Shown here: one piece after another, positions 23,011 to 54,605 of the stretch
Layout of the letters: each line of letters opens with the position of its first letter
Numbering within the stretch: position 1 is the stretch's first letter
From: a virus
Virus record (IMG/VR): IMGVR_UViG_3300011115_000844
Location: 10,102-74,101 of that record
Strand: one strand, 5' to 3'
Length of the DNA: 64,000 bases
Program-made: the position numbers and the translations under genes
Notes under the pieces: model-generated
Told to the model about the DNA's origin: nothing
The model's input: the letters and a program-made list of their open reading frames with translations, nothing else
The model's database searches: none

Positions 23011-23265
23011 TTAAATTATTTTACCCGTACCAATCGAAAATGTTTTTCCACCAAACTCAAATGTTGGTAAATCTTTTCTTATTGCCATTGCCCATGCTTT
23101 TATGTAATCTTGATTCCAATCTTTTAAATAAAATGATGGGACTTTCTTCGTTACTTTTGATATAGTACGAGCATAGGAATATTTAGAAATCTTTAAATAA
23201 TAAAAACCATATCCTAAAGCTAATACAACGCCAACAACTATTGCACCTTTTGTATTCTTATTCAT
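23011..23265 (-). CDS. N-terminal TM protein
   Basis: Hydrophobic N-terminus. Confidence 0.65.
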   Translation of the reverse strand: MNKNTKGAIVVGVVLALGYGFYYLKISKYSYARTISKVTKKVPSFYLKDWNQDYIKAWAMAIRKDLPTFEFGGKTFSIGTGKII

Positions 23266-24040
23266 AAACTATATAGTTATTCTTTTCGAAATTGTCAATA
23301 AACGCTTTTATTTTATCGTATCTAACTTTATTCATTTCAGTTGGCGTACTTATAAATGTTTTCAAATACGCTTCGTGTCCTTCAAATCTTGGATAACCTA
23401 AACCTAAGTATATCAATAACCCATTCAAATCTGCTTCGCTTTCATTATCAATATCTTTGTTCACATAAAAGTGGCTATACTCATGTAGTAATATTGCCAT
23501 TCTCATTGCCACCGTATCGGGTGTAAATTTCTTTTGACTTACTTGTATAACGCCATTATCCTTGTTAATTCTTGCAGGTGTTTGTAACTCCTTACCCGAT
23601 TTGCTACTAATAATAGTAGGCAAATATTCTATTCTAAATTTCCCATCAGATGACTTGTATGTACCCGAAGATAAAACCCCTGCGTTAAAACAAAATTTTG
23701 TGCAAAAATTTATAAAACTTCTTAAATCATTATTGCTAAAATCAACAACATCTAATCTTTTTTCTAATGGAATTTTTTTAATCTCTACCACTTCAAAGCT
23801 ATTATCTTCTTTGTGTTGACCTACTTTCTCATTGTAAAGATTGATTAAAGAAATTTTACCACTTATAGGCATACGGACATAAAACGAACACTCACCATTA
23901 ACAGTTTTCCATCTATCCGTAAAAACAGTATTTTTTTGGTCAGCATCGCTAACCTTCAAATGTATTTTTTCGGGTTTATCAGTTTTTACTTTGATTAACA
24001 AAGTAAACTCTTCATATCGTGTTGGTAATCTGTATATCAT
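23258..24040 (-). CDS. zincin-like metalloprotease (candidate maturation protease)
   Basis: AILLHEYSH (HEXXH) with downstream ESEAD, located inside the virion membrane-protein cluster. Confidence 0.75.
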   Translation of the reverse strand: MIYRLPTRYEEFTLLIKVKTDKPEKIHLKVSDADQKNTVFTDRWKTVNGECSFYVRMPISGKISLINLYNEKVGQHKEDNSFEVVEIKKIPLEKRLDVVDFSNNDLRSFINFCTKFCFNAGVLSSGTYKSSDGKFRIEYLPTIISSKSGKELQTPARINKDNGVIQVSQKKFTPDTVAMRMAILLHEYSHFYVNKDIDNESEADLNGLLIYLGLGYPRFEGHEAYLKTFISTPTEMNKVRYDKIKAFIDNFEKNNYIVYE

Positions 24041-34780: not shown

Positions 34781-37621
34781 CTAACTTTTTTTTTTACCCA
34801 TATACTTACTTCTCATTGCTCCTGCAATTCTTTTTGCTGAATCTACGGCTTCTTTTTTATCGTATGTTTTACCATAGTCTTTTTGAACACTTGGAGAAAC
34901 TTTTTTACGTTTTAATAAACTTTGAGAAATTGATTTTACCTTATCATTGAAAGTGGTTGTACCACCTTCTCCTTTACTAATAATATATTTCTTATCATAT
35001 ACCCCACCATTTTTACCACCACCACTTACCATAGTAGCATATTCATTTTTAACTTTCATTCTAAATGAATCAGCCATGTTTGGCAATTTAATAGTTACAG
35101 TTTTTCCAACGTATGTATTTTCAGATGTTTCAAATTCGTTTCTTTCTTTGTTTGTTATTATTCTTTTATAATCTTGGTTTAATTCTTTCATAGAAGAATA
35201 CCCACCTTCATAAATTCCACCACCCTTACCAAATTTCGGGAACATTTTATATGTATCATGTTTTTCTAAATGTCCATATTTGCTAAATGTTTCCTTTGAC
35301 AAATGAATTGCTTTAATTCCATTTTGTTTTTCTAAACTATCGTATTTTTCTTCGGCTTCTGATTTACTATCAAATACTAAATCATTTACCTTATTACCAT
35401 CATCCCAAATTATGTGATAATAAGTTTTATTTTTTCTTTCGCTAATACTTGGAAAATCAGTCATGCCACCCTTCGCCATTTTGCCACCAAAAACTTTATC
35501 AATGTTTGAAGCAAGTTTTTGTTCTCCATTCATTTGAGCAACATATTTAAACGCCATAGCAATGCCATATCCATCATACCCCGATTTTTGAGAAACATCA
35601 ATACCTAATTCTCTTACATTATCATCAGCATCATAGTACTTAGACGAGTAAACTGAATTATCTCTCCATTCAGAATATTGAGGCGAACCAAATTCGGGAA
35701 CGCTTGACTTATCAGCGTATGGGTCTTTTGCCCATTCGGGTCTTTTCTCCAATATGCTTATAAATTGTCTTACTTCGGAATGGCTATTAGCATCAGTCAA
35801 ACCTTCAACGAGTGCTTGTGCCAAAGCAATTGAATAATCATAACCTAAATCTTTTCTTGTTACACCTAATTCATTTGCTCTTTTTTGTGCGTATAAGTTC
35901 AAATCCCTATTAGTCATGCCACCGTCAGCAAACTTTTTGTAATGAGGATTTTTTGGTCTTGTTTTTCTTTTATAATCTTGCTCCCAACTTTGTTGCGACT
36001 TAAACATTCTATCCCTACTTAAATTCGTTTCGCCACCATCAGCATATTGCCCCATCATTGTATGCACTTTAAACGCACCTTGCACATCTTCGTTCAAATC
36101 TTGAAACTCTTGATTAGCAATTCCTACTATTTCGCTTTCCTTAACCCCTAATTCGTTAAAATGGTCAATCATGAAGTGTATTCTTTGGTCTTCAGATAAA
36201 CTGTTCCAAATGTCCTCTGTTGTTCTCCCACGATAGTTATTTGGAATACTACCACCTTTAGCCATTTTATCGGAAATAATCTCAATTTTATCAAATGATT
36301 TTTTTTGTATTCTATAATTACTGCCTTGTATTTCTTTAGGAAAATCCCCATGAAAAACTAAATCGTCATAGGACTTTCCAACTGATGATTTTATTTTACT
36401 CCCATTTTTCATAGTAACTAATAAATTCTTATTAGTTCTATTCAAATAATCCATCATATCGTAATCAATATCTTCAACTTTTATTATTCCTGCATTTGGA
36501 AATCCACCATTAGCAAGTTTTACTGCCATTTCATTAGGTGTGCTATCAGCATTCGCTAAGTAATTTTCGCCACTATCATTTTTTATAATTTGCAATTCTC
36601 CACCATCAGCAAATTTTTCTTCTCCATTTTCGTATGTTGCTATAACTTTAAAATACTTCTCCCAACCTTTTTCTTTAAAGTATTCTAAATCTTCTTCTTG
36701 ACCCCAAGTAATTCTTTCTGATAATGATGCTACTTTCCTTCCACTATCTTTATTAAATTCATAATCAAAAACATAAGTTTTAGTTTTATTCCTTTTTGAA
36801 GAATCTTTAGCATCTTTTTTCACTTCCTCAATTCTATCTTTTATTTCGCCACCATCAGCAAATTTATTTGCCATATCGTACTCTTCCTTAGATATTTCAA
36901 TAGCGTTTGGAGGTGTTGGAGAAGCAATATTTTTTACTAAATAAGTGTAATAGGTGTTACCCTCTTTATCAACTTCTTTTATTTTATAGTAATCATTTCT
37001 TAGAACACCACCGTTTGCATACGAAGGGTACATATTCAATTCATATCTACCACTATCCATTCTGTATATCTGAATATTAGCAACGCCTTCTTTAGATTTA
37101 CCTTGCAATTGTATTGGTCTTGTTATCCTTGCAGTTTCTCCATACCCAATACCACCAACAGTTACATCGGGGAAATAATTATCAGAAGTAAACAAATATC
37201 CTTCATTATGGAAAAAATCTTCTACTTCTTCTAACGCTTGTGCAAGTGTATCATGGTAAATTTTATAGCCATGAACCTTACCACCCTTTGCAAAGGTTTC
37301 GCCTTGATTTAATCTACTCAATAACTCACTTGCATTTATTGGTTGAAAATAAATATCCCTTTCAAGATTTAACCCGAATGGAGGCACTTTCATCATCTCT
37401 AAACTTTCCCTGCTTACAGAACCTACTTCTATTTCAAACAAGTTCACAATTGCCCAAATATAATCGGGGTCGCTTGGGTCTGAATTAAGCAAGTAAAAAG
37501 TTCCATTACCATAAGGATTAAATATTTTAGCTACAACCATTTGATTTTTAAGGTCATTGCCTAATTTATATTGACTAAATAATTTGTTGTCAATTTCTTT
37601 TGTAAATAATTTTTGACGCAT
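34781..37621 (-). CDS. polyvalent multi-module protein with N-terminal DUF2958-like domain and about ten [FYML]-A-x-GG linkers
   Basis: KIFNPYGNGTFYL...EVGSVS...LERDIYF; repeated FADGG/MAKGG/YANGG. Confidence 0.8.
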   Translation of the reverse strand: MRQKLFTKEIDNKLFSQYKLGNDLKNQMVVAKIFNPYGNGTFYLLNSDPSDPDYIWAIVNLFEIEVGSVSRESLEMMKVPPFGLNLERDIYFQPINASELLSRLNQGETFAKGGKVHGYKIYHDTLAQALEEVEDFFHNEGYLFTSDNYFPDVTVGGIGYGETARITRPIQLQGKSKEGVANIQIYRMDSGRYELNMYPSYANGGVLRNDYYKIKEVDKEGNTYYTYLVKNIASPTPPNAIEISKEEYDMANKFADGGEIKDRIEEVKKDAKDSSKRNKTKTYVFDYEFNKDSGRKVASLSERITWGQEEDLEYFKEKGWEKYFKVIATYENGEEKFADGGELQIIKNDSGENYLANADSTPNEMAVKLANGGFPNAGIIKVEDIDYDMMDYLNRTNKNLLVTMKNGSKIKSSVGKSYDDLVFHGDFPKEIQGSNYRIQKKSFDKIEIISDKMAKGGSIPNNYRGRTTEDIWNSLSEDQRIHFMIDHFNELGVKESEIVGIANQEFQDLNEDVQGAFKVHTMMGQYADGGETNLSRDRMFKSQQSWEQDYKRKTRPKNPHYKKFADGGMTNRDLNLYAQKRANELGVTRKDLGYDYSIALAQALVEGLTDANSHSEVRQFISILEKRPEWAKDPYADKSSVPEFGSPQYSEWRDNSVYSSKYYDADDNVRELGIDVSQKSGYDGYGIAMAFKYVAQMNGEQKLASNIDKVFGGKMAKGGMTDFPSISERKNKTYYHIIWDDGNKVNDLVFDSKSEAEEKYDSLEKQNGIKAIHLSKETFSKYGHLEKHDTYKMFPKFGKGGGIYEGGYSSMKELNQDYKRIITNKERNEFETSENTYVGKTVTIKLPNMADSFRMKVKNEYATMVSGGGKNGGVYDKKYIISKGEGGTTTFNDKVKSISQSLLKRKKVSPSVQKDYGKTYDKKEAVDSAKRIAGAMRSKYMGKKKS

Positions 37622-37624
37622 TTT

Positions 37625-38170
37625 TTAATTTTTATATTGAAACGTATGTTCTCTAACTGATTTTTGCCTTCCCATGATTGTATTGCGAATATCCGAAGAT
37701 GTGCAATTCAAATGTTTTGATGCTTTTGCTATTGATTTAAATTCATAAATAAAATTGCCATTTTTATCAAACATTAAAACAACTTTTTCATTATTAATAC
37801 TTGGCAATTTTAAACCAATTTTAAAAGCGTGTTTTTGATTTTCTGAATTAGTTGACCATTCTAAATTTATTTCAGAATTATCATTTTTAACTCCGTTAAT
37901 ATGATTTACTTGTGGTTTATTTTCTTCATTATTAATAAAAGAAGACGCAACTAATCTATGCACTTTATATATTTTACCTTTACCATTTTTATACAAATCA
38001 ACAACAACATATCCGTTTTTGTCCGAAGCCAAAGACCTAATTTTTTCTTTTAGTAATCTTTCCCCACCTTTTGAGTGCTTGACATATTTACCACAACTCT
38101 TTACCCTGCCTAAATTACTTACTTGGTAAAGTCCTTCATAGTTAACTACATCTTTCCAAACTTCGAGCAT
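37625..38170 (-). CDS. NUMOD4-HNH homing endonuclease
   Basis: EVWKDV..YEGLYQVSNLGRVKS; VHRLVA...VNHINGVKNDN...NLEW. Confidence 0.92.
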   Translation of the reverse strand: MLEVWKDVVNYEGLYQVSNLGRVKSCGKYVKHSKGGERLLKEKIRSLASDKNGYVVVDLYKNGKGKIYKVHRLVASSFINNEENKPQVNHINGVKNDNSEINLEWSTNSENQKHAFKIGLKLPSINNEKVVLMFDKNGNFIYEFKSIAKASKHLNCTSSDIRNTIMGRQKSVREHTFQYKN

Positions 38171-38197
38171 ATTTTAATTTTTATTTTTTATTACATT

Positions 38198-39163
38198 TTA
38201 GATTGCTTCTTTTCTTGTACCTTTTGAAAGGTTTACATAAGCGTATTTGCCATCGTTCATTACTCTAATAGAACTTGAATCTATATCTGAAACATCAATT
38301 ATCTTATCCCCTACTTTCAATCCATGTTCAGTCATACCACCTTTAGCATACATACCACCTTCGCTTCTATGCGTTTCTCCACCATTGGCAAACATTGGGT
38401 TTGTAATATCCATTTGTGGTGTTAAATCAACATTTGAAAATGCAGTACCACCTACGTTTTGTAAACCTGCACCACTTGTATCAGAAAGTAAATCTATTGC
38501 ACCACCATCAGCAAATTTTATACCTTCTTTGCTCATTTCTTTTCTTGCTTTAGCAATTAGTTTCAAATGCAATTCTTGTCTTTTTTTACCGTTTTCAGTT
38601 GATAAAAAACCTTCTTTGTCATGTAATTGCAATATTCTTTTTGCTTCTTTTAACTCACTTTCAGTTCCAAAATGCTTAGCCAACAAAACTACATTTTCGC
38701 TATGTGCATTTTCATCTTCATTTTCTAAATATTGGCTTTTTATTTTAGAATATGTCATGCCACCCTTTGCCATCATACCACCATCTTCTAATCTTGGGTA
38801 TTTTCTTGGAGGTTGTTTTCTATCGGTACGGTTTTCACGATATTCGTAGTAAGTGTTACCTTCTGCCGAAGTACGTCTGCCAATAGGTTTTGCAGGTCTT
38901 TGTGCATCTTGATAAATGTCTGATTTACCAAACGGTCTTGACTTGCTATATTTTCTTTTTATTTCTTTTGAAATTTCTTTAGCTTTTGAAACCTTTGATG
39001 TAGTTGCTTTTGGTTTTTCTTTTGCTTTTATATCAGCAATATCTTTTTTGAATTTATTTACCAATAAACGTGCTTTTGCCTTTGCAGGTGGTTTAGTAGC
39101 TTTACTGTTAATACCTTTTTCTAATTTAGCAATTTTTTCTTGTAATTCTTTTATTGTTGCCAT
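38198..39163 (-). CDS. basic multi-module protein with A-x-GG linkers
   Basis: LEDGG, MAKGG, FADGG, FANGG, YAKGG. Confidence 0.75.
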   Translation of the reverse strand: MATIKELQEKIAKLEKGINSKATKPPAKAKARLLVNKFKKDIADIKAKEKPKATTSKVSKAKEISKEIKRKYSKSRPFGKSDIYQDAQRPAKPIGRRTSAEGNTYYEYRENRTDRKQPPRKYPRLEDGGMMAKGGMTYSKIKSQYLENEDENAHSENVVLLAKHFGTESELKEAKRILQLHDKEGFLSTENGKKRQELHLKLIAKARKEMSKEGIKFADGGAIDLLSDTSGAGLQNVGGTAFSNVDLTPQMDITNPMFANGGETHRSEGGMYAKGGMTEHGLKVGDKIIDVSDIDSSSIRVMNDGKYAYVNLSKGTRKEAI

Positions 39164-39181
39164 TGTGTTTTTTTTATAAAA

Positions 39182-40273
39182 TTATGAATAATATCTGTTA
39201 TATAGTGAACGTAAATCTTGTAAATCTTTAATACCATCTTCATCACCTATTTCTGCCATAATCTCTGCCGAAGCAATCGCATCTTCTAATTCCTCTTTTG
39301 TAAATGGAGGTTTGTGTTCATGTTGTGAAGGCGTTGGTGGTTCGGGTGGTGTTGGAGGTGTTGGAGGTTCGGGAGGTGTTGGAGGTTCGGGTTTTGGTGT
39401 ACGAGGTTTGCGTTGTGGTGGTTGTGGTGTTGGTGGTTGTGGCGTTTGAGGTTGTGGTGTTGGTGGTAATGCGTGAACATCATTTTGTGGCAATGTTTGT
39501 TGCTCCAATTTAACATTCATGTTACCATAAAGACCTAAATTTTGTGTCCTCAAAAAATCCATCAATTGTCGCATCCACGTTACAATTAATTCAGCCAATT
39601 GTTCTTTTTGGTTTGAATCAACACTTTCACTATAAATTTCTTGCGAACCTTCAATTATCGCAACAAATTCCTTTATGTCTTCGGGAAAATTATCTGATAC
39701 TTGTTGTGGTACTTGCAAGTAATTTAAAACCTTACTACTGTTACCCGTAAATGTTGGTGCAGGTACTTGTTGTGTGGGCATTTGTGGTAACGCTTTATTT
39801 TCCAACCAACCTATATCCATGAGCATTGGTACTATGTTTTCCTTTCTTGTTTTATTTAAGAAAAACTTTGTGCCATCTGAAAACCCTATCATTGTATCAG
39901 TCAATTCGGTTATTTCTAAATTTGAATAACCACCCCCACTTGCATCTTTTACATTTAACGTATCACCAATAACTGCAAAATCAACTAACTCCCAACTTTG
40001 CCCATTTTCTAATTGAAATAATATTGTTTTATCGCCTTTTTTCCTATCTCTATCTTTATCGTCTTGTTCAAGTCCATTTGGAAACCAAAGATTCAAACTA
40101 TCATAACCAACAATTTTTGAAACAGTAAATAAAGTGCTTGACCCATCGTTTAATTTAGTATCAAAAAGTATGAAAGCGTATTTACCAAGATACGATTCAG
40201 CCAAATCCTCTAAATCTTGTTTAGAAAGCGAATTTATTTTGTCTTGTAATATCCTATTTACTTTATTTTCCAT
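39182..40273 (-). CDS. hypothetical protein with long Pro-rich linker
   Basis: 363-aa ORF with PPTPPEPP repeats. Confidence 0.7.
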   Translation of the reverse strand: MENKVNRILQDKINSLSKQDLEDLAESYLGKYAFILFDTKLNDGSSTLFTVSKIVGYDSLNLWFPNGLEQDDKDRDRKKGDKTILFQLENGQSWELVDFAVIGDTLNVKDASGGGYSNLEITELTDTMIGFSDGTKFFLNKTRKENIVPMLMDIGWLENKALPQMPTQQVPAPTFTGNSSKVLNYLQVPQQVSDNFPEDIKEFVAIIEGSQEIYSESVDSNQKEQLAELIVTWMRQLMDFLRTQNLGLYGNMNVKLEQQTLPQNDVHALPPTPQPQTPQPPTPQPPQRKPRTPKPEPPTPPEPPTPPTPPEPPTPSQHEHKPPFTKEELEDAIASAEIMAEIGDEDGIKDLQDLRSLYNRYYS

Positions 40274-40586
40274 TCCAATTAAATTTAGTTAGTCCTTGTA
40301 TGTACGTTAATATTTCATTACTGTTTCTAAACACTTCTGTCATCATGTCCATTTCGTAAAAGTTTCCATTAGGTTCAACAAAAAAGTTTTTTGTTTCAGT
40401 AACGGGAACGAAATTATCATTATAACCTTCAATAATTGTAGATACAATAACTATGTTTTTATCTTCGATATTATTCTCATTTCTAAGCACAATAAATTCG
40501 CAATAATCATCAGTTGCAAATTGGTCGCAATTCTTTTTATTTTGCTCAAAAAATGATTTAATAATTTGTAATTGTTCTTTTGTCAT
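40263..40586 (-). CDS. hypothetical protein
   Basis: Translationally coupled ORF. Confidence 0.6.
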   Translation of the reverse strand: MTKEQLQIIKSFFEQNKKNCDQFATDDYCEFIVLRNENNIEDKNIVIVSTIIEGYNDNFVPVTETKNFFVEPNGNFYEMDMMTEVFRNSNEILTYIQGLTKFNWNGK

Positions 40587-41881
40587 AAAGTAGATATTTG
40601 ATTGATAACTGTATTATAACTATCTAATGCTTCATTTTCAGTCATTGCAGGTGGCAAAACTATTTTACTATTTGATATTTGCGAAGCCAACCTATCGCTT
40701 TCACTACTTTGTTTAGAAAGATACTCTATGTAAGTGCTTTTAATATCGGAAATATTAGTATTAACACTACCTATACTACTTGTAAAATCACTTTGACTTG
40801 TATAACCTGCATCATACAAACTTGCATAAAATGTTCTAAACATTTGTACTCTAAAAAATCGCATATCACTTACCAATAAAGAAAGTTGGTTTTTGTCCAA
40901 TGGTTGATTTTCATTTTTTATGTTTACAAAATCATAAATAAATTTTCCATTAACCTTTAAACCGTAACAAGCAATTACTCTATAATCTACATTCGCTTGT
41001 GTTAATCTTTCACAAATTGAAGCCATTGCAATACTATTCCAAAAAGATTCATTACTTGTTTCGCCCCATGAATAAGAAACGGGTATAATAATATCAACTC
41101 TTGGTAGAGAACTTTCTATTTTTGGAATATTGATAAAACACTTTTTAAAAGTAGTTGCAAACTTATCTTTTCCATTTTTATCTTTTGCTTGTTTTCTTTC
41201 TACTTCGTGTCTTTTAATTTCCAATTTTTCGGGGTAATACAAAATAATTATTTTGTCTTCTCCTTCCTCTTGTAATAATTCGTTCTTATCAACATTTCTT
41301 TTTAAAACATCGCTATAATAACCACCCTTACTGCCAACATATTCTATTTCATGTTTTGGAATATAAGGATTGCCAACATAGTAATAAATCTTTTTACCAT
41401 CAGATACAGTTTCGCTTTTTACAAGATTAGGAGAAACCAATTCATTTAATAAAGGCGAATAATATTCATATACACGAATTAAACCTAACGAAGCCAAATC
41501 AAAAGAAAAAATACCAATTTCCTTTTCAGTAAATTCAATTTTCTTTACTTGGTCTATATCATTAAAATCGTATTTACTTGCTCTTGTTGTTAGTTTTGTT
41601 GATTCCGATTCAACATCGTTTATTTTGGTATATCTATCTAAATTTTGATTTACAAAATCAGAAGACAATGTTCCATATTTTTCTTCACCATCACTATCAA
41701 TTGACCTTTGTACTGTTTGTTGTAAACGTGATTTATCCCAATACCCTCTTGCAGTATTATATTGCGTTGAAGTAGTTGGCACTTTGCTAACTACTTCATC
41801 GGTAAAATCCTCTACATCTTTTATTGAATCAAAATAAAAGACAGTTTTATTGGGTGATAATTTTAGTTTTTTATACGCCAT
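40583..41881 (-). CDS. probable vWA-like partner of the MoxR-type ATPase
   Basis: Directly downstream of the AAA+ gene; degenerate vWA-like C-terminal half (DIIIPVSYS...ICERL...YRVIA). Confidence 0.5.
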   Translation of the reverse strand: MAYKKLKLSPNKTVFYFDSIKDVEDFTDEVVSKVPTTSTQYNTARGYWDKSRLQQTVQRSIDSDGEEKYGTLSSDFVNQNLDRYTKINDVESESTKLTTRASKYDFNDIDQVKKIEFTEKEIGIFSFDLASLGLIRVYEYYSPLLNELVSPNLVKSETVSDGKKIYYYVGNPYIPKHEIEYVGSKGGYYSDVLKRNVDKNELLQEEGEDKIIILYYPEKLEIKRHEVERKQAKDKNGKDKFATTFKKCFINIPKIESSLPRVDIIIPVSYSWGETSNESFWNSIAMASICERLTQANVDYRVIACYGLKVNGKFIYDFVNIKNENQPLDKNQLSLLVSDMRFFRVQMFRTFYASLYDAGYTSQSDFTSSIGSVNTNISDIKSTYIEYLSKQSSESDRLASQISNSKIVLPPAMTENEALDSYNTVINQISTL

Positions 41882-41884
41882 TTA

Positions 41885-44356
41885 TTATGGTTCTATTTTT
41901 TCAGCAACAAAGAAATCTGAATATTTTTTAAATATTGAAGAAACACTATTGGCAACACTATCATTCAAGGTTGATACCATATTGCCGTTTATAATTTCTT
42001 TAATTGTTTCATCAACCTTTGATTTTATAAACGCAGGTGTAAATTTACTTTTGGTAATAATTATATCAACCGTTGTTTTATCAAATGCTACTAAAAAGCT
42101 ATCAAACGCTTTTTGTAAAGTTTTACCTTTATTTATTCCAACATCTTTACCTTCACTTTTAGCTATTGCTCTTACTAATTCAATTTCAAATGCAACTCTA
42201 AAAGAAACCAATGTACGATAAGACACTACTGCAAGGTCATCAAGTGACAAATCTTTCAAAATTGTTCTAAGTCCTTTTGCTTCGGGTGGTGTTTGATTAT
42301 TTTTTATTGCTTCGGTATATTCATAATAGTTACCTACCAACATTTCGTAAAGAAATTTAAACCTTGAAGTCAATTCATCAATTGGTTTGCTATACTCTAC
42401 TTTATAAACGCTACCCGAAAATCTATCTAATAAAGATAAATCTTGCTGATTATTTGCCTTATATTTTTTTGGTGGTGCAGTATTTGGATAAATGTTACCC
42501 GTACCAATCAAAGCAAAATTTTCATTTCTTGGTATTGGTGCTTCTTCGGGATTTGTGCTACTAATCATAGCATTCTTTGATTCCCTTGTTTTAGAAGATT
42601 TAGCAAGTGCATCATTAAATAAACCTGCCGTATTAGGGTCAAGACGAGGCATTTCATCAAGAATTAAAATTTTACCATCCCTCCACGCATTGATTAATTT
42701 ACCTTCTTTATAACCTTCAATCGTTTGCCCACCTAAAATTTCAGTTGGCGAAGTATATTGTGAACAGTTAATAATTAAATATTCTCTTTTTAATTTTTTT
42801 GCAACTTCTTCTGCCGTATATGTATTGTGTGTTACAATATAATCATCTGTAATGTAAAGATGTGTTGGGTTAGTTACCGATATACATCTTGTTTCTAATT
42901 CTCCAACATATTCAACCTTGTCAATAAATCTTTTAATACCGTATTTTGTTGGTTTTTTATATCTATCCTTTTTATAAGTAAGTTTAAATGGTTGTATTTC
43001 ATCAGGGAAAACACAAAAAATTCTATATGCAGTATGTCCTTCTTTTTTTACTCCATTATAGTTATAGTATGGTGTTTTTTCTGTTTTTTTAGCCGTTCCA
43101 CCTAAACTTCTAACTAATTCACAATAATCATTTGCTAAACATTCGCTTGAAGTACAAAATTCAAAATGAGTATTATCGCTATAAGCATCTGTATCATTTA
43201 AACCTTGTAATAAAGCAATTCTATTTTCAATGCTATCGTATAAATACTCTTCGGGAATAAATTTATGAATAGATTTTTTGCCATGCAATTTAAGTCGAAT
43301 CAATTCCTCTTTTAATGGATTTGGTAAAGACATATTCGTTCTTACTAAGCCATAAGTTAAGCATCTATTTTCGCTTTCTCTTTCAACTAACTCAATACCT
43401 TCGGGTAATACAAGCGAATCAAATAATTCTTTACTTGGATTGCAAATTGATAATGATGTTTGACTTATACTTCCATCTCCTAAAATAACACCCAAAGTGT
43501 ATGGATTTATTTTATGTGAAATGCTATCAAATTCAATTGCTTTGTTTATATCAATATAAGCATTTGCATTATTATCGCCTATTTTGATTTTATTCATAAA
43601 TTCTTTTAATGGTAACACTCTACCATCATTACCTTTACCTCTGTCGTTCCTTGTATAAATTTTCCATAAATGTTCATCACAAGTATCAACAAAGCCACCA
43701 TCGTTCATAAAAACTCTATAAACAGATTTTTCGCCTCTATCAAAAACTCCATTTATTTCGTAAAGTTTACCATCTTCACCAAAAACTTTATCGCCTTCTT
43801 TTACATCGGCAAATGTAATCCAACCTTTATCAGATAAAACTTTTGTGTATAATGGACTTGCTTTACCACCACCTGCTTCTCCAATTAAATAAACATTATT
43901 ACCTGCCAATACATCGTCAATAACTTCAAAGAAATATGGAATTTCCGAATCTCTTTTACTTACTTCTATTTTAAACCCACCAAAATTAGGAAGTTCAAGA
44001 ATAACCTTTTGGTTTGCTTTAATAAACTCCATTACATCATTATCTAATTCCGTAAGGTTAACCTTATCAGTAACTAAGTAATCTTCAATAATTTTTCTAA
44101 CTTGAACGCTATCTACACCACTACCTTGCCCACCCATCATTGTTGCTCTTAAAGTTGCTAATGCAGTTTGAGAATAACTTGTAGGTGTTGCAGGTTGATT
44201 AGGTGTAGGCATTGGTGTTGGGTCAACTTGTGCTAATTCTATTTCTAACTTATCAATAGTTTCTTGGACTAATTTTTTTGCATTGACATCTGTAATGGTG
44301 TTCAATGCTTCCCTTAGTGTTACCAATTCATCTAATATTTCTTCTTTTCTTGTCAT
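41885..44356 (-). CDS. MoxR/CobS-like AAA+ ATPase interrupted by an intein
   Basis: GEAGGGK|T Walker A, LILDEMPR Walker B, IGTGN, DLSLLDRF. Confidence 0.85.
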   Translation of the reverse strand: MTRKEEILDELVTLREALNTITDVNAKKLVQETIDKLEIELAQVDPTPMPTPNQPATPTSYSQTALATLRATMMGGQGSGVDSVQVRKIIEDYLVTDKVNLTELDNDVMEFIKANQKVILELPNFGGFKIEVSKRDSEIPYFFEVIDDVLAGNNVYLIGEAGGGKASPLYTKVLSDKGWITFADVKEGDKVFGEDGKLYEINGVFDRGEKSVYRVFMNDGGFVDTCDEHLWKIYTRNDRGKGNDGRVLPLKEFMNKIKIGDNNANAYIDINKAIEFDSISHKINPYTLGVILGDGSISQTSLSICNPSKELFDSLVLPEGIELVERESENRCLTYGLVRTNMSLPNPLKEELIRLKLHGKKSIHKFIPEEYLYDSIENRIALLQGLNDTDAYSDNTHFEFCTSSECLANDYCELVRSLGGTAKKTEKTPYYNYNGVKKEGHTAYRIFCVFPDEIQPFKLTYKKDRYKKPTKYGIKRFIDKVEYVGELETRCISVTNPTHLYITDDYIVTHNTYTAEEVAKKLKREYLIINCSQYTSPTEILGGQTIEGYKEGKLINAWRDGKILILDEMPRLDPNTAGLFNDALAKSSKTRESKNAMISSTNPEEAPIPRNENFALIGTGNIYPNTAPPKKYKANNQQDLSLLDRFSGSVYKVEYSKPIDELTSRFKFLYEMLVGNYYEYTEAIKNNQTPPEAKGLRTILKDLSLDDLAVVSYRTLVSFRVAFEIELVRAIAKSEGKDVGINKGKTLQKAFDSFLVAFDKTTVDIIITKSKFTPAFIKSKVDETIKEIINGNMVSTLNDSVANSVSSIFKKYSDFFVAEKIEP
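42824..43861 (-). mobile_element. class 3 intein (346 aa) with LAGLIDADG endonuclease
   Basis: Starts with Ala (ASPLYTKV), block B DEHLW, block F TRCISV, block G VTHN|T; LGVILGDG and LLQGLNDTD motifs. Confidence 0.9.
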
Positions 44357-45915
44357 TTTGTGTATTTTAATGTAATGTTTAATGCTTTAATTTGATTTTC
44401 TATAATTCTTGTATTTTCATCAGTTGTAGGGTACTTTAAAACTAAATTGAGTGCTTTTATTTGATTTTCTATTGTTGCCCTATCTGATGTTGGTGTTGTT
44501 TGTGTAGGTTCATCAATAAATTTTATTCTGCCCTTATCTATCCATTCATTTTTTGCACTTACTTCACTAATCCATAAAAAATCATTAATTATATCTCCAC
44601 CCTTGTTTGTCCAATTCAAATAAATGTTATTGTTTTTAATACTGTTAACTTCATAAACAATATCTATATCATCATCTACAATTACAAATTTATCTCCAAC
44701 TTCAAATTTTCTATTTGATGTAGGAGTAGAATCGGGTTTAGGGAAAAATGCAGGGTTTAAATATGTTTTGAATTTTAAATCTTTTTGACTTTCAAAATAA
44801 TCTTGATATTCTTTGCGTTTTGTTTCTCCAAAATAACCCATTAAACCTAAAAAATTATTTAATGAATGGTAATTTTCATTTTCTAAAACATTATAAACTC
44901 TTCTTTTTTGACTTTCTTCGGCATTTATGAATAAATTAAATAAATCCTTTTTCATGTAATTTATTATTCTTGCCTCTAATCTTATTACATAATTTTCTTG
45001 CAAAGAAATATCGTTGTATAATTGACCTCCCGATTTTATTTTTAATTCATCCCATATATATTCATCGTAATCTGCAAAAGATTTTGCAATTTCACCTACT
45101 TCATCATTTGTTAAAAGAGGTTTTGATTTTGGTTCGGGTTGTGGTGTTGGCGTTGGTTCATTTTTAGGTGTGTAATATTTTAAAAGTATTTCACACAATT
45201 TTTTAGATACTTCATTTACATCAGTAATAAGACCCCACTTGCTAAATGTTTGTGTTTTCTTAGTCCACTTAAAACCCGTTTGCATATAAATATCGCCTTG
45301 AATCTCACCCCAACTTTCTCTGTTTTGAGGTGTTTCCTTGTCTTTAACTAAATTGTAAACGAAAGTATCTTGATATGCCTTTACATACAATTTCCAACCT
45401 GCACATTCTGTAACTAAATCACCCCATTCAAAATTACTTCTACCACTACTTCTGCCACCACTTGTTGTAGGACTTGCATTTTTAAGTATTTTTTCCCAAT
45501 CGGGAGCAGGTTGGTCTTTTTCTTTGCTATCGTAAGGAGGATAATTATTTACGTGCAAATATTTAGTGCCAACTGATATAGTACCTAATGATGTATCTAT
45601 TGAACCACGTTTATAATTATGCCCATCGTAATATTCAAAAATATCTAACTCTTTGATAATTTTTATTATGTACTCTTCGGGTATTCTATTAAAATAAACA
45701 TCAATAGCATCACCACCTGCAAATTTTCTACTTTTAACCCACGAAATACCTCTACCCGAAAATTTAGGATATTTGCTATCTACCCATTGCCTAATCATTT
45801 TTGAAGTACCCGTTACCGTAACTGAAATATTCGTATCGCTATAAAAGTATGCTTCGATACCTTTATACTTTACACCATCGTATGTAAAATCAATATTTTT
45901 TTTAGAATTTGCCAT
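44353..45915 (-). CDS. polyvalent-type protein with N-terminal LPD29-like domain and duplicated C-terminal IENQIKALNxxLKY
   Basis: SKMIRQWV...YPKF...VKSRKFAGGDAIDVYF. Confidence 0.65.
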   Translation of the reverse strand: MANSKKNIDFTYDGVKYKGIEAYFYSDTNISVTVTGTSKMIRQWVDSKYPKFSGRGISWVKSRKFAGGDAIDVYFNRIPEEYIIKIIKELDIFEYYDGHNYKRGSIDTSLGTISVGTKYLHVNNYPPYDSKEKDQPAPDWEKILKNASPTTSGGRSSGRSNFEWGDLVTECAGWKLYVKAYQDTFVYNLVKDKETPQNRESWGEIQGDIYMQTGFKWTKKTQTFSKWGLITDVNEVSKKLCEILLKYYTPKNEPTPTPQPEPKSKPLLTNDEVGEIAKSFADYDEYIWDELKIKSGGQLYNDISLQENYVIRLEARIINYMKKDLFNLFINAEESQKRRVYNVLENENYHSLNNFLGLMGYFGETKRKEYQDYFESQKDLKFKTYLNPAFFPKPDSTPTSNRKFEVGDKFVIVDDDIDIVYEVNSIKNNNIYLNWTNKGGDIINDFLWISEVSAKNEWIDKGRIKFIDEPTQTTPTSDRATIENQIKALNLVLKYPTTDENTRIIENQIKALNITLKYTK

Positions 45916-48900
45916 TTATTTTATTTATTAAATTTTCAACATAATTAATAGAATTACTAATTGGTTTTTTAATTACATCGTTGTAAGAAGTTGTCAATTC
46001 CTTTACAATATCAAAATCAGAAATCAAATTCCCCCCAAATTTATATTTTTTTCCCATACATTTACAAGATTTTTGATTTATTTCGCCACCTTCTTTAAAA
46101 GAAACCCCTCCACCCATTTCATTAATAGTAGAAAGTATTTCTCTATTCGTCATCATTTTACCTTCAAATTCTCTTTTTGTATTGTCTGCAACTGAACGCT
46201 TGTTTATAATAACTTCGTTTCCTTCAACCTCTAACATTTGCCCCGTATCTTTATTAACTGCCTTAATTCCACCATCTGCATGGCTTCTACCATCAAAAAA
46301 ACCACCCTTCTTCGCATCGTTGGTATGTTTACCATCGCCTTTTACTGTACCACCTTCGGCAAATTTATTTACACCAATTGTGTTTCTAAGCATTTGTGCT
46401 TTTGACATATTTTCTTGTTGCATATCTTCTTGGTTTAATTCTGTTAATGAGCCACCGTCTTCATATCTTATATCTTCTTTGAAAGGGTCAAAGTCAATGT
46501 TTCTGCCATCAGCAAGTTTAACTTGGTTAGCATCAAAAATTGTCCACGCTTTTGTAAATTCAGCAGGGTTATCTACATCGTACACTCCTTTAAACTCTTC
46601 TGCATATCTAACACCATCAAAACCATGCGACATTAAAAAGTATTTAAACTCTTTTTTAGTATCTCTTGCCATTAATAACCAAAATGGCTTATCGTCAAAT
46701 CCAAAAGTAGCATAAATGTATGTACCTATTTGTTCCAAAACTACTTTTAAAGTTTCTGCCCATTGTTCGTCTGTAATGTTTTCTCCATAATTTTTTTTGG
46801 CTATTACTTTTGAAATTTTCATTCCCCAACCAATTTGATTATCAAGTTCATCGTAAAAATCTTCTGTAATAGCCATGAACGGGTTTCTAATGTTCAAAAA
46901 GCACTTATACAACAATTCCAAACCATGTTGCCCTCTTTGTGAATTAGTAGTGAAATTTTGACTGTATTCTATGTTATCAGCGAAATATCCATAAGGTCTT
47001 CCAACTCCTTCTTTTTTGGTAACGTCAAACGTATAAAATTCCTCTTTGAAGTTAGTACCATGATACACCACTTGTGGTTCTAATGTAGTTAAATCAATAA
47101 CAATAGAACAATTTTTATAGTGTTGTAAAAAGTTACTTTTATCATCTTGTAAAAACGATTTAGCACATTTTTCCCAATCTCCAAACCACTTTTTAAATTC
47201 AGTTGTACGCACTAAAACTTGTTGAATATAATTCAGTTTTGTTGGTTGTTTTGTTGGTGTGTTTAATTTGAAAATCATATCTACTTCGCCACCGTTTGCA
47301 TAAGCCGAAATTATTTTTGGCAAATATGTATCAGCATCCATTTTCATTGTATCTAATTCCTTTTCCATTTCGCTTAATTTTTGATAATAATAAGGACTTT
47401 CGTTTAAATGGTCTAATGCTATTTTACTTGCAATAGATTTATCGTTTGTGTGTTCCATTTCAAATTTAATTCCCAATTTTAATTGCGAATTAATATATTC
47501 CAAAGGTAACTTAAATTTAGTAGCTATCTTGTGTACATTTGTGTCAATCTCGCTTTGAGTTAAACCTTGTAATTCGCCACCTTTTTTGTAAAAAGATATA
47601 TCGGCAAAATTTGGGTTGTCCATACGTTGTACTGTATCTTCTATGCGAACATCCATTTCGCCACCATCAGACATTTTATTACTATTCAATGGTTTTAATT
47701 CATAAGTTTTAATAAACTCACCAACTGTAAATAATTCAAGTTCAGTTATATTATTTTGTTTCAACTTTTTTGACATTGTATTCCAATCATCCACTCCCCA
47801 TTTGAAATTAAAACTTTCTAACTCTTTAGATTCTATTGCAATATTTGATAAATCACCTCTTCTTACATTTGCTTGAAACGAACCTTTACCTTCAAATGGA
47901 GAGTAATTATTACCAACGTAAGTTTGTTCAACATTTGTATAAATTGTTATCCCCGAAAATGTCTTTGAATATTTAAACCCTTTTGTTGCACCTCCGTTAT
48001 CGTATTTCATGATTGAACTTTTTTTAGGGTTATGCCCCCATATTAATAATGATGTATGTTTTCTTGTTTTGTTACCCTTGTCATCGTACAATTCGCCTTG
48101 CATTCCACTCATGCGACTGATAAATGATATTTGCTTATTTGCCCATTTCCACATAGTATCAGTCCACTTATCTTTTGGTGTGGTTTTCATCTTCATAATC
48201 ATTCTTGCACTTTCTCTACCACTACTAATGCCTTGTTTATTGGCTTCGCTTGTTGAAAGTCCTGCTTCTTTCCCTTCCTTTGAATCGTAAAACCTTTTCA
48301 ATTCTCCATAACTCATATTTACAATCGACTTCCATTTTGCGTAGGTTTCATTGTGTTCATCTACTTCGCCACCATCAGCATAGCCAATCGGGTCAACATC
48401 GTAATACATTCTATTGTCAAACATACAAATATGACAAACATATTTATCAAACGCTTCAGATTTTTTTGTATTCCATTCATGTCTACATCTTCTACATTTA
48501 ATGTCTTGACCTACTTCGCTACTATCAGCGTATTTTGGCAATCTTTTCATAAACTCTTTGTTCGGGGTTAATTCAAAACCAAAACTTTGATAATACTCAA
48601 TTAATTCGTTTCTTGTTTTTGTATTACCTATTGGTGTAGGTTCTAAATAAATCGTAACTCTATATTCATCGGCTTTATCAACTATTTGTTGCAAATACTT
48701 ATATGCTTTTACGGATTTATTACTTTTTTCAAACTTGTCAAAAATAACAACATTATCTTCTTTAAATGGTCTTAATTCATTTGGTAATGCAATTATTATC
48801 GTTATATCATTTTTTATACCTTTATACCAATCAATATACCATTTATAGAACAAACCTACTTCGCCACCATCAGCATATTTCATATCGGTAACATTCATTA

Positions 48901-49591
48901 ATTTATAAAAATCATTGTTCCCATCAATAGTATTAAAACCCGATTTTTGAAGCATTGATTTTATTACATCAATATTAGGTTCTGCTTTTTGAGTTATATG
49001 TCCAAAAATTAAATCGTGTCCATTTTTATCAGCATATTCAATAATGTATTGCATAACCTTAGTACCAATACCTTTCATTCTATTGCTTTTAGAAACTATT
49101 AATGATTGAACGTATAAAGGGTTTTTAGCATCAAAACCATATATTTTGCTATGCTCATTGGTTGTACTAAACATTTTTAATTCAACTACTCCATCATTAA
49201 TTAATTTATCTATTTCGCCACCTTTAGCGTATTTCATCAAATCATCATCTTGAACGTATGCTTTCTTAACCTTTGTGCCACCTGCTTTTAAAAGAAACTT
49301 ATTTACCCTTGCCATTGCCCATCCACCCCTTGTAATATTCGGTCTATGTGATGTACTGTATGCTCCCAAACCTCTACGGTAAACTGCTTTTAAATCATTT
49401 AAAGTAATATTTTCGTTATCGTGTTTTTCTCTAAATTCCTTTAACTTATTATTTAATGCCACAATAGTTTTAGCATCAAATTTTATTTCAGTTGCAGTTT
49501 TTTCTGACGAAGCACTCCCTTTTGAGTTTACCTTAGAACCTTTAATCCTATCTTTTGCAGGTGCAGGTGTTTGTGATAATGACTTAGCCAT
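45902..49591 (-). CDS. large polyvalent protein (DUF5824-like, two GNAT-like, Zn ribbon, DUF3140-like, DUF5661-like, ART-PolyVal-like) with about 12 x-x-GG linkers
   Basis: AVYRRGLGAY...WAMARV; RMKGIGTKVM; LIEYYQSFGF; CRRC...CHIC; SLLIWGHNP; GIKFEMEH...IALDHL; FKKWFGDWE...VYHGT...FLNIRNP...GFDGV. Confidence 0.8.
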   Translation of the reverse strand: MAKSLSQTPAPAKDRIKGSKVNSKGSASSEKTATEIKFDAKTIVALNNKLKEFREKHDNENITLNDLKAVYRRGLGAYSTSHRPNITRGGWAMARVNKFLLKAGGTKVKKAYVQDDDLMKYAKGGEIDKLINDGVVELKMFSTTNEHSKIYGFDAKNPLYVQSLIVSKSNRMKGIGTKVMQYIIEYADKNGHDLIFGHITQKAEPNIDVIKSMLQKSGFNTIDGNNDFYKLMNVTDMKYADGGEVGLFYKWYIDWYKGIKNDITIIIALPNELRPFKEDNVVIFDKFEKSNKSVKAYKYLQQIVDKADEYRVTIYLEPTPIGNTKTRNELIEYYQSFGFELTPNKEFMKRLPKYADSSEVGQDIKCRRCRHEWNTKKSEAFDKYVCHICMFDNRMYYDVDPIGYADGGEVDEHNETYAKWKSIVNMSYGELKRFYDSKEGKEAGLSTSEANKQGISSGRESARMIMKMKTTPKDKWTDTMWKWANKQISFISRMSGMQGELYDDKGNKTRKHTSLLIWGHNPKKSSIMKYDNGGATKGFKYSKTFSGITIYTNVEQTYVGNNYSPFEGKGSFQANVRRGDLSNIAIESKELESFNFKWGVDDWNTMSKKLKQNNITELELFTVGEFIKTYELKPLNSNKMSDGGEMDVRIEDTVQRMDNPNFADISFYKKGGELQGLTQSEIDTNVHKIATKFKLPLEYINSQLKLGIKFEMEHTNDKSIASKIALDHLNESPYYYQKLSEMEKELDTMKMDADTYLPKIISAYANGGEVDMIFKLNTPTKQPTKLNYIQQVLVRTTEFKKWFGDWEKCAKSFLQDDKSNFLQHYKNCSIVIDLTTLEPQVVYHGTNFKEEFYTFDVTKKEGVGRPYGYFADNIEYSQNFTTNSQRGQHGLELLYKCFLNIRNPFMAITEDFYDELDNQIGWGMKISKVIAKKNYGENITDEQWAETLKVVLEQIGTYIYATFGFDDKPFWLLMARDTKKEFKYFLMSHGFDGVRYAEEFKGVYDVDNPAEFTKAWTIFDANQVKLADGRNIDFDPFKEDIRYEDGGSLTELNQEDMQQENMSKAQMLRNTIGVNKFAEGGTVKGDGKHTNDAKKGGFFDGRSHADGGIKAVNKDTGQMLEVEGNEVIINKRSVADNTKREFEGKMMTNREILSTINEMGGGVSFKEGGEINQKSCKCMGKKYKFGGNLISDFDIVKELTTSYNDVIKKPISNSINYVENLINKINGKF

Positions 49592-49931: not shown

Positions 49932-51200
49932 TTATAAAGTTTTTTTAAATAAATCTACCCAAGTCTTTGATATTATTTTCCAATCAAGACCTTGCATATA
50001 TTTATAAGCGTTATCAATTCTCTTATTATAGTTTTCTAAAAAATTAATATCTTCATAATCACCCTGCATTCCTTTTGCTATGTAAAGTATCATATCAGCA
50101 ACATCAATATAATCACATTGTTGTCTTATCGTATTATCAAAAGTAGTTGATATAGGAATTAGTTTATCAATTGTGTATGCTCTTTTACCGTTATCAGTCA
50201 TTTCAATAAATGAAGTTGAGTTAGGACAAATAACGGGTGTTTTAGTAGCCATTGCTTCTGTTAGTGTCAAACCCCAACCTTCGCCAAGTGTTGTGGTTAA
50301 ATATACGTCAGAGGCATTGTAAATCTTATTTAGCATTTCTATACTTGCTCCATTGTTAGCTAAATCAATATCCAATAACTTATAATCTTTCCCTTCAATT
50401 AAATCTGTTTGTGCAAGAATACATCTAATATCCCAACCCATCGGGTCTTTTGGGTGCATATGTAGGTATAAAAATGGTTCTTTCTCAATTTGATTTTCTT
50501 CCCATTGTTTTTTTGCTTCAATAAATGAAAATATAGTTGTAGGTATATCCTTTCGGGGTTGATTCCTATTTATGTTTGTAATAATAAACTTATCAGCATT
50601 TCTTCCAAAATATTCCTTTCTAAATTCTACAATTTCTTTTTGAGGTAATGGGAAAAATTGCTTTGGGTTATTACCATGAGGTATAACTTTAATTTTCTTT
50701 TTTAATTCGGGTTTGTGTTTCAAAACTTCTTTTCTACCATATTCGGTATATGCAACTATACAATCAAAAAAATCTAACCCATCTGTAAGTTTTTCAACAA
50801 GTGGTGCGTCAACGGGAAAATAAAATATGGACTTAAATTGTTTTTTGTTAGTAGCAATCTTTTCATCAATAATTGTTTTTAAAATTGATGTTATTGGCAA
50901 AATAACCCCTAAATCTTGAATGATAAAAATACCATCGTATTCGTCTGTATCTTTCAAAATTTTAAGAAAACCAAACCTACCAAAATCATCTTTCTTTGTT
51001 GCTGATTTTACTGCCGATATAACGTAAGTGCCATCTTCTTCTGTATATGGTTCTCCGAAATAATTAATAGCACAAATATCCAATTGAATATTATTTCCAA
51101 AATTATTCTTTAATTCTTTCTTTATATTGTGTGAAACTGTGGCAAACCCCGTATGGCAATTATAATCGCCTAAAAATAATACTTTGTAACTCTTTTCCAT
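49932..51200 (-). CDS. GT4 family glycosyltransferase
   Basis: TGFATVS, NRNQPRKD, YNASDVYLTTTLGEGWGLTLTEAMA. Confidence 0.9.
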   Translation of the reverse strand: MEKSYKVLFLGDYNCHTGFATVSHNIKKELKNNFGNNIQLDICAINYFGEPYTEEDGTYVISAVKSATKKDDFGRFGFLKILKDTDEYDGIFIIQDLGVILPITSILKTIIDEKIATNKKQFKSIFYFPVDAPLVEKLTDGLDFFDCIVAYTEYGRKEVLKHKPELKKKIKVIPHGNNPKQFFPLPQKEIVEFRKEYFGRNADKFIITNINRNQPRKDIPTTIFSFIEAKKQWEENQIEKEPFLYLHMHPKDPMGWDIRCILAQTDLIEGKDYKLLDIDLANNGASIEMLNKIYNASDVYLTTTLGEGWGLTLTEAMATKTPVICPNSTSFIEMTDNGKRAYTIDKLIPISTTFDNTIRQQCDYIDVADMILYIAKGMQGDYEDINFLENYNKRIDNAYKYMQGLDWKIISKTWVDLFKKTL

Positions 51201-51231
51201 TTAATAGGTTTATTTTATAAAATAAATATGT

Positions 51232-51957
51232 TTACAATGTTTTTAAAACAATTCCTCCAAATATACCAATTCCAAACCAAAATAACTTACTATCTAATAT
51301 GGTTTTTTTATCCTTAACTACAACATTTTTTAACTTGCTTACATCAAGATATGGGTTACTATTGCTAACTTCTACTACTGCTTCTTTTTTTAATTTCAAA
51401 AAACCACTTTTTTTATAGCCAAGCGTAACTACTGATTCGTTGGTTAATAAAAAACTATCCAACAACAAACCTTTCTTTTGAACCTTACCGTACATACTAA
51501 ACCATTTTTCCTCCATTTTAAATGGTTGTGGCACTATTACGCTATTGTTCAGTAAACTATCAATTAAATACCTTGAACTATCTCCTTTTTTTATTCTTGC
51601 CATCCAAACTGATGTATCGGCAAAATGTGTTGGAATAAAGGGAACAAAAATGCTATCTATTTTAATCTGTTGCTTTTGGCTAATTTGACTTTGTACTATT
51701 TTTATATCCCCATTAAGTTTTAAAACTCCCAATTTTAATGCTTCAAATTGTGATAACAACATTTGATTTTGAGTTGCTAATGTACTGCTATCCTTTAATG
51801 TTTTTTTTTGAAAGTTATTTTGAAGGTCAACATATTTAGTTGAATTATCCAATAAATTATTGTAATCTTTTTGTATTTCACAACCTTTATAAAATAACAT
51901 TATTATTATAAACGTAAGAATTACTATGATTATTCGATTAAAATTTAGTTTATTCAT
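51232..51957 (-). CDS. membrane protein with N- and C-terminal hydrophobic segments (spanin-like candidate)
   Basis: N-terminal TM ending KGC, coiled coil, NSNPY, C-terminal FWFGIGIFGG. Confidence 0.5.
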   Translation of the reverse strand: MNKLNFNRIIIVILTFIIIMLFYKGCEIQKDYNNLLDNSTKYVDLQNNFQKKTLKDSSTLATQNQMLLSQFEALKLGVLKLNGDIKIVQSQISQKQQIKIDSIFVPFIPTHFADTSVWMARIKKGDSSRYLIDSLLNNSVIVPQPFKMEEKWFSMYGKVQKKGLLLDSFLLTNESVVTLGYKKSGFLKLKKEAVVEVSNSNPYLDVSKLKNVVVKDKKTILDSKLFWFGIGIFGGIVLKTL

Positions 51958-52876: not shown

Positions 52877-52877
52877 G

Positions 52878-53225: not shown

Positions 53226-53243
53226 TTTATGTGTTTTTTGATT

Positions 53244-54008: not shown

Positions 54009-54012
54009 TTAA

Positions 54013-54600: not shown

Positions 54601-54605
54601 TTTTT

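Follow-up and report, generated by a model that had tools for sequence, protein, structure and literature searches.

The prohead proteases of phages T4 (gp21) and phiKZ/SPN3US cut packaged ejection proteins at short motifs, and the packaged and cut ejection proteins of T4 include an ADP-ribosyltransferase. Packaging, injection together with the DNA and processing by zincin-like peptidases have been predicted for the polyvalent proteins that Iyer, Burroughs, Anand, de Souza and Aravind described in 2017 (PMC5512222). According to the same paper, which makes no mention of a conserved junction motif, the N4 vRNAP and several plasmid polyvalent proteins are transferred uncleaved. The tape measure protein pb2 of phage T5 is cut after R1127 to give pb2* and pb2C (PMC10038345), and the reference list of that article includes a 1973 paper whose title reports host involvement for T5. 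In this study, we analyzed a 64,000-nucleotide stretch of viral DNA, referred to as the window, which covers bases 10102–74101 of the 74,101-bp IMG/VR virus record IMGVR_UViG_3300011115_000844 (G000); all coordinates below are window positions. Three of its genes encode proteins of 1229, 946 and 321 amino acids (aa), P0001, P0002 and P0003, in which many small modules are separated by copies of a short [FYM]-A-x-G-G motif, hereafter called the joint. Based on their domain content, these three cassette proteins belong to the polyvalent proteins as defined by Iyer et al. (2017): P0001 combines GNAT, ART-PolyVal, DUF5824, DUF3140 and DUF5661, and P0002 combines DUF2958 with modules that have no assigned family. 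The analysis confirms that this architecture of cassettes and joints exists, is under selection and is widely distributed in an uncultured virus family.

In its strict form, [FYM]A[DKNE]GG, the joint occurs 17 times genome-wide, against 0.17 copies expected from composition, and all 17 copies lie in P0001, P0002 and P0003. A looser pattern gives 30 matches genome-wide, about 26 of which have joint character; the roughly 28 copies counted for the three proteins in a preliminary description of this DNA are therefore a fair figure. The near variants include YEDGG, YDNGG, MSDGG, YKKGG, FKEGG, FGKGG, LEDGG and LANGG. ITRGG at position 86 and LKAGG at position 101 were rejected as joints because they are conserved residues of the DUF5824 domain itself; VTVGG and VSGGG have the look of random matches. 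Over 1006 distinct contexts, the logo reads k-[MYF]-A-[KD]-G-G-[EMK]-[TVIML], with [MYF] in 90%, Ala in 66% and a hydrophobic residue two positions after the GG in 89%. The gaps between joints are bimodal, with one class of 0–10 aa (tandem copies, e.g., FADGGFMNNVYADGG) and another of 50–80 aa, and their median is 67 aa. Moreover, the GG columns keep 91% identity between orthologous giant proteins whose overall identity is 53%.

The joint is also common among relatives. A search with P0002 returned 305 related proteins, and at least three strict copies were present in 104 of the 125 examined. In IMG/VR, DUF2958 relatives are encoded at 41 loci: most of those with 31–38% G+C have joint-rich proteins of up to 3272 aa, with 20–22 strict copies or about 30 by the looser pattern, and those with 50–56% G+C encode DUF2958 as a stand-alone protein and lack joints. 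Joints are likewise missing from the homologous domains of the cultured Actinomycetia phage DSL-LC01 and of Flavobacterium phage immuto, so that the joint is specific to a lineage and does not belong to the domains themselves. Within the searchable literature, we found no text containing two or more variants of the motif and no description of the joint.

Based on domain assignments, all six Pfam domains of P0001 and P0002 lie wholly between [FYM]-type joints, and none spans one, which bears out the earlier placement of the motif at domain borders. In P0001, the GNAT domain ends at residue 238 and the next joint starts at residue 239; similarly, ART-PolyVal ends at residue 1034 and the next joint starts at residue 1043. 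The six domains make up 27% of the residues, and by simple arithmetic the chance that about 20 joints would all miss them is approximately 0.002. Additionally, all ten joints of P0002 lie in coil in its AF2 model (mean pLDDT 49), and at the confident domains of this model (residues 1–110 and approximately 462–525) the confidence collapses exactly at the flanking joints. Judged by the Pfam borders and by the coil of the P0002 model, the joints thus stand outside folded domains, the opposite of what the preliminary description had named as a refutation.

Comparisons with relatives also place joints at module borders. Stand-alone DUF2958 proteins of joint-free viruses (107–120 aa) end at the position of the first joint in the cassette proteins (108–113). 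Among the split genes found in relatives, the new start coincides with a joint in one case, directly follows a joint in another and lies 17 aa beyond a joint in a third. In an all-versus-all BLAST comparison of 138 joint-rich proteins, 63% of the starts and 55% of the ends of high-scoring segment pairs lie at most 8 aa from a joint, compared with 21% for random positions, the pairs in this statistic not being independent of one another. In loci L010 and L012, the ART module of P0001 has a joint on either side, and its neighbors differ in L008, L010, L012 and L041. The comparison of module order in related genomes that the preliminary description had proposed shows modules swapped, dropped and added at joints. 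Collectively, these results indicate that the joint is a specific element under purifying selection, which lies in linkers at exact domain ends and at which modules have been added, lost and swapped among more than 100 related metagenomic proteins.

P0001 (45902..49591, minus strand) carries, in order, DUF5824 (residues 59–113; 49253–49417), GNAT (residues 146–238; 48878–49156), a module without assigned family together with a Zn-ribbon-like piece, DUF3140 (residues 420–515; 48047–48334), another module without assigned family, DUF5661 (residues 688–745; 47357–47530), ART-PolyVal (PF18760; residues 838–1034; 46490–47080; E 2.3e-11, above the cut-off) and a C-terminal module. The five named domains were assigned with Pfam, and the conserved C-terminal module (45905–46363; FAEGGTV...EVEGNEVIINKRS...FKEGGEI) was delimited by alignment. 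Eleven [FYM]-type joints stand at residues 121, 239, 404, 530, 640, 668, 764, 1043, 1077, 1165 and 1183. Near residue 352 (approximately 350–356; window ~48530–48545), P0001 also contains a variant in which SS takes the place of GG (YADSSEVG for YADGGEVG) and which is otherwise almost identical to the copies at residues 239 and 404. This copy is a possible natural "uncleavable" control.

The two other proteins are carriers of a similar plan. P0003 (38198..39163, minus strand) opens with a Lys/Arg-rich N-terminal head that closes with KYPRLEDGG and is followed by four more joints (residues 131, 217, 258 and 272). Relatives have, at its syntenic position, proteins of 265 to 3272 aa with the head and a short C-terminal tail in common; the head is basic (..RPAKPxGRR..YYEYRxNRxD..KYPxLExGG), and the tail is exemplified by ..HKND. 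P0002 (34781..37621, minus strand) has a DUF2958 head (Pfam; residues 6–94; 37340–37606), approximately 9–10 joints that separate variable modules and, at the C-terminus, a conserved basic tail (34784–34966), which in this family reads KVKSI..LLKRKKVSP... The variable part is flanked by a conserved head and a conserved tail in the P0002 family and in the P0003 family, the two carrier families examined. The largest relatives, encoded at L016:167-9985, L023:1475-9985 and L020:1640-9985, are proteins of 2781–3272 aa with about 30 joints each, internal repeats of 70–80-aa modules (e.g., ...HxxxGQYAxGG units) and the conserved end ...PTSNTHKND. No credible Pfam domain was found in these giant proteins, the sole match being DUF5642, below the cut-off, in L020, and the DUF2958-headed relatives have no Pfam domain besides DUF2958. 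The effector-type enzymes among the modules are GNAT and ART-PolyVal. Most modules are 50–80 aa in length and without a recognizable family, and "effector" is therefore established for only a few. Of the earlier proposal that these are polyproteins of anti-host effectors, the multi-module, joint-delimited organization and the presence of some effector enzymes stand, and the effector label does not extend to the majority of modules.

The joint resembles sequences of two processed tape measure proteins. From the Ala onward, the sequence at the T5 pb2 cut, ...NSFVPR|AEGGMMYPGVS, agrees with the joint. In lambda gpH, which is matured to gpH*, a small module of the processed C-terminal region is flanked by HFATGGFT and GYATGGYV, and FAEGGTV, YADGGEV and MAKGGMT are comparable joints in the present proteins. 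Based on this analogy, on the selected sequence pattern and on a conserved protease candidate, we tentatively favor the reading, at a probability of roughly 0.42, that the joint is a proteolytic processing site of the T5 pb2 kind, which may be cut by the protein P0004 and which would free the modules. Each joint at a module border would be cut as in pb2 (R|AEGGMM), either by P0004, a conserved putative M48-like zincin, or by another protease, and the scissile bond would lie before the Ala, as in T5, or after the GG. Cutting would free the modules as separate small proteins, the release would take place during particle maturation or after delivery with the DNA, and the freed modules would then act on host defenses and metabolism. 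We counted the strong specificity on both sides of the joint in favor of cleavage, since it exceeds what a flexible linker needs. Gene order and analogy suggest that the cassette proteins may be virion cargo in the first place. The Met of MAKGG was also considered as an internal start codon, and this was rejected as a general explanation because half of the copies have Tyr or Phe instead.

P0004 (260 aa; 23258..24040, minus strand) is the candidate processing protease, with a predicted N-terminal beta-sandwich and C-terminal zincin domain. Its residues H186, E187, H190, E200 and D204 (HExxH..E..D) are invariant in 58 sequences of 30–55% identity, and the family comprises 580 clusters at 50% identity in a library of 1.84 billion proteins. 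The model of P0004 (pLDDT 95) consists of a beta-sandwich and a helical domain. For residues 122–253, the best structural match is the M48 protease BepA (Z 8.6, 115 aligned residues, root-mean-square deviation 4.0), and further matches are 3c37, a putative Zn peptidase (Z 6.7), and Ste24 (Z 6.6); such Z scores are borderline for helical domains with the tool used. P0004 has no Pfam, NCBIfam or PDB sequence match, and an Atlas search gave weak metallopeptidase leads. The gene sits among structural-candidate genes and is present in 10 of 10 joint-bearing records and in 0 of 5 joint-free DUF2958 records. Collectively, the invariant residues and the modeled fold indicate that P0004 is a probable metallopeptidase, possibly an M48-like zincin, conserved with the cassette system, and the protease that the preliminary description had singled out at this position is to that extent upheld.

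The same description had likened the joint to the sites of adenovirus and African swine fever virus (ASFV) proteases, and this analogy failed, since no clan-CE protease is detectable and the register of the site differs. In a six-frame search of the whole genome with PF00770 and PF02902, there was no match to adenain/Ulp1-like proteases at E<=10, and control genomes did match, although a very divergent clan-CE member could escape detection in this way. The adenain/Ulp1 hypothesis (Pfam C5, C48) was rejected on the basis of this result.

Several observations weigh against cleavage by P0004 or against cleavage altogether. The co-occurrence of P0004 and the joint is confounded by common descent, because all ten joint-bearing records belong to one virus family and therefore do not provide independent evidence. 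The T5 match is a single site, with Arg instead of an aromatic residue at position 0, and if the joints of the tape measure proteins are the same element, then the candidate zincin P0004 may not be the cutter. Furthermore, cutting at tandem joints only 5 aa apart (FADGGFMNNVYADGG) would free tiny peptides, and the final joints that lie 6–12 aa from some C-termini suit a binding tag as well as a cleavage site. Finally, most of P0002 is of low confidence in the AF2 model. Taken together, polyvalent cargo with a probable processing joint and a credible protease candidate fits the data, and this picture is partly supported.

The joint might instead stay uncut and serve as a repeated linear docking or packaging tag, or as a handle for a chaperone or for translocation, in which case the proteins would act as intact beads on a string; the particle interior and the AAA_5 ATPase block between the genes are the candidate partners. 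Specificity on both sides of the GG, including the hydrophobic residue two positions after it, would be expected of such a tag as well, and the tandem copies 5–18 aa apart, the terminal copies 6–12 aa from the C-terminus and the split-off gene that begins with the joint itself all suit it. Moreover, the AAA_5/DUF7192 block lies between the cassette genes in all close relatives, and N4 vRNAP and several plasmid polyvalent proteins set a precedent for uncleaved transfer (PMC5512222). However, the joint is not predicted to dock on neighboring domains in the AF2 model of P0002, a near-identical sequence is the mapped cleavage site of T5 pb2, and modules of unrelated activity, such as ART and GNAT, would stay tethered to one another. 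We regard an uncut joint as possible, though on balance unlikely.

A role mainly at the DNA level was also considered, in which the conserved codons (TTY/TAY/ATG-GCT-RAN-GGY-GGN) would be microhomologies for cassette swaps, for example by RecT, and the peptide would be a tolerated linker. The Ala codon of the joint is GCT in 82% of cases versus 41% in the rest of the same proteins, GGY encodes the first Gly in 91% versus 69% in other Gly-Gly pairs, and for the second Gly this genome uses GGC in 47% of joints versus 11% elsewhere; however, this codon bias could reflect the shared descent of copied linkers. Similarly, at least 14 identical bases are shared in 18 of 253 joint pairs, with a maximum of 22, whereas joint copies have a median of only 5 bases in common. 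Exchange breakpoints do lie at joints, and a RecT gene is present at 3464–4369. In contrast, conservation follows amino acid classes over different codons (M/Y/F; K/D/N; T/V/I/M/L), including the position after the GG, which homology would not need, and the GG is retained in diverged orthologues. Based on the codon bias, the shared base runs and the RecT gene, microhomology may help cassette exchange; it cannot explain the conservation of amino acid classes. Such a role is compatible with one at the protein level rather than exclusive of it, and as the main function of the joint we consider it improbable. A Chi-like reading of GATGGTGG was rejected because it applies to the Asp-codon variant only.

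It is somewhat less probable still that the three proteins stand in for the tape measure or ejection apparatus of a highly divergent tailed phage, with joints that are structural and serve tube assembly, since, although lambda gpH and T5 pb2 carry the joint, the C-terminal module of P0001 is locally like the lambda joint (VEGNEVIINKRSVAD versus VHRGEFVFTKEATSR), automatic taxonomy places the P0004 clusters in Uroviricota and a fiber protein has an S74 chaperone end, the hhalign match of that module to lambda gpH is not significant (15 columns, E 0.097; against T5 pb2, 8 columns, E 0.38), the P0002 model has no long helical ruler segments, the three genes are separate with an ATPase block between them, and the searches gave no match to a tail tube, sheath, portal, terminase or HK97 capsid.

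Returning to cleavage, a broader form of this reading would make the joint a general phage cargo-release site, at which, in this virus family, a dedicated virion zincin cuts strings of 10–30 small modules and at which the same cut is made in T5 pb2 and lambda gpH. We consider this generalization unlikely, and a little more so than an uncut joint. If it were true, a cocktail of separate anti-defense and host-takeover proteins would be delivered with the genome, an explanation would be at hand for a processing step that has lacked both its protease and its rule since the 1970s–80s, and hundreds of uncharacterized small modules would be marked as candidate defense inhibitors. The modules of 50–80 aa are, by our own comparison, presumably about the size of known anti-defense proteins. 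Even in the narrower case that the joints are processing sites, they would allow very large, unannotated viral proteins to be divided into functional units by a simple sequence rule and would link polyvalent proteins to the maturation cut of tape measure proteins, which has long gone unexplained. Even without cutting, the joints mark the sites of exchange in a highly active cassette system, which belongs to an abundant and uncultured family of viruses.

The three cassette genes lie downstream of a terminator-like hairpin and directly upstream of the block of structural candidates (window 4399–34661), on the same strand as these candidates. Between the cassette genes, a conserved syntenic block (39182..45915, minus strand) encodes a 520-aa protein, an AAA_5 ATPase, a DUF7192 protein of 432 aa and two uncharacterized proteins of 107 and 363 aa. 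The 520-aa protein (44353–45915), located between P0001 and the ATPase, is without joints, and its residues 198–393 form one module in common with a cassette protein of L010 (29% identity). Modules therefore move between jointed and joint-free genes. The 823-aa AAA_5 ATPase (MoxR/CobS-like; 41885–44356) is split by an intein with a LAGLIDADG homing endonuclease, and its PHROG matches to "terminase large subunit" are spurious because of this intein. In L008 and L041, only ATPase residues 512–811 were matched, in shorter open reading frames (ORFs), and these copies may be without the intein insert. A gene for an HNH/NUMOD homing endonuclease (37625..38170, minus strand) is inserted between P0003 and P0002. 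Homologues occupy the same junction in L006, L007 and L024 and are absent from most relatives; this gene is a mobile insertion at a conserved gene junction, outside the system.

The 74,101-bp record has 121 ORFs totaling 23,273 aa. Its two ends are inverted copies of each other over approximately 660 bp with 5 mismatches, that is, inverted terminal repeats (ITRs), and it is therefore probably a complete linear genome; the relative G007 (84,420 bp) also has ITRs. The CheckV completeness of 57% is probably an underestimate, this type of virus being outside the knowledge of CheckV. There was no Pfam match to protein-primed PolB (pPolB) in the record. A megablast search of 24 kb against a phage collection returned no close cultured relative, tblastn of P0002 and P0003 returned only a DUF2958 match or none, and the modules of P0001 each match a different, unrelated phage. 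Among bins of metagenome-assembled genomes that contain P0004 homologues, five of eight are Bacteroidota, which is the probable host of this uncultured, linear, ITR-bearing virus family. The bins in which viral contigs were placed include those of Sediminibacterium, Flavobacteriales and Saprospiraceae.

Searches with PHROGs, Pfam, NCBIfam, PDB sequences and Atlas recognized no capsid, portal, terminase, tail tube, sheath or A32-type ATPase, and the Pox_A32, Terminase_6N, HK97 and pPolB models gave no match to the capsid, ATPase and structural candidates. The only recognized tail-type family is a 1262-aa fiber (16769–20557), identified through its S74 chaperone end. A candidate packaging ATPase of 282 aa (28104–28952), with Walker A (GKRGVGKS) and Walker B (LLLVED) motifs, is kept in relatives. 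The capsid candidate (262 aa; 26950–27738) has a conserved acidic N-terminal extension before its conserved APTSQPYII start, and this extension contains two copies of F-x-N-A-[DN]-G (FLNADGFFDDD...DFMxANG). From its sequence, the extension looks like a propeptide with its own motif and is a possible second class of zincin substrate; its F-x-N-A-D-G-F motif was rejected as a joint because relatives do not keep the GG. Within the structural block lies a gene for a PAP2 lipid phosphatase (31686–32333), and a cluster of glycosyltransferase, epimerase and methyltransferase genes (49932–56580) lies upstream of P0001. The PAP2 gene and the sugar- and methyl-transfer genes hint at lipid- or glycan-modifying viral functions.

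Compared with known systems, the joint shares with the sites of adenovirus and ASFV pS273R an invariant Gly-Gly core in a repeated site, which in those viruses lies in virion-associated precursors. In contrast to the adenain sites, (M/I/L)xGG|x, the joint has its hydrophobic residue at P5 and Ala at P4, as read from the logo with a cut after GG, and the only conserved protease candidate here is a metalloprotease. With T4 gp21 ([LI]xE; Alt and internal proteins) and phiKZ/SPN3US gp175/gp245 ([SAG]xE), it has in common that a short consensus marks cuts in packaged ejection proteins (e.g., PMC10052503). However, those enzymes are serine proteases of tailed-phage proheads with Glu at P1, and their substrates are cut once or a few times, with removal of targeting or propeptide pieces, rather than built as strings of 10–30 cassettes.

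The polyvalent proteins are closer. Both they and the present proteins combine many unrelated domains in one viral polypeptide, drawn from the same signature families (ART-PolyVal PF18760, GNAT, DUF5824, DUF5661, DUF3140 and DUF2958), and in both cases the prediction is that the proteins accompany the DNA and are processed by a zincin. The logic of packaging, injection and processing was already proposed in PMC5512222, and it is therefore not new for bacterial viruses; the preliminary description had known of no such account. In contrast to polyvalent proteins, the candidate peptidase here is a separate gene among the structural candidates and not a domain of the polyprotein, the modules are mostly tiny (50–80 aa), without known family and up to about 30 per protein, and no portal-terminase system was recognized in the virus. 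Finally, T5 pb2 and lambda gpH have one or two joints within the helical ruler of a tailed phage, whereas the proteins described here are not rulers and have 5–12 joints each. What they share with tape measure maturation is the sequence A-x-G-G-[M/F/Y]-[M/T/V] at or beside the processing region, and in lambda gpH two full copies, [FY]ATGG[FY][TV], stand around a small module.

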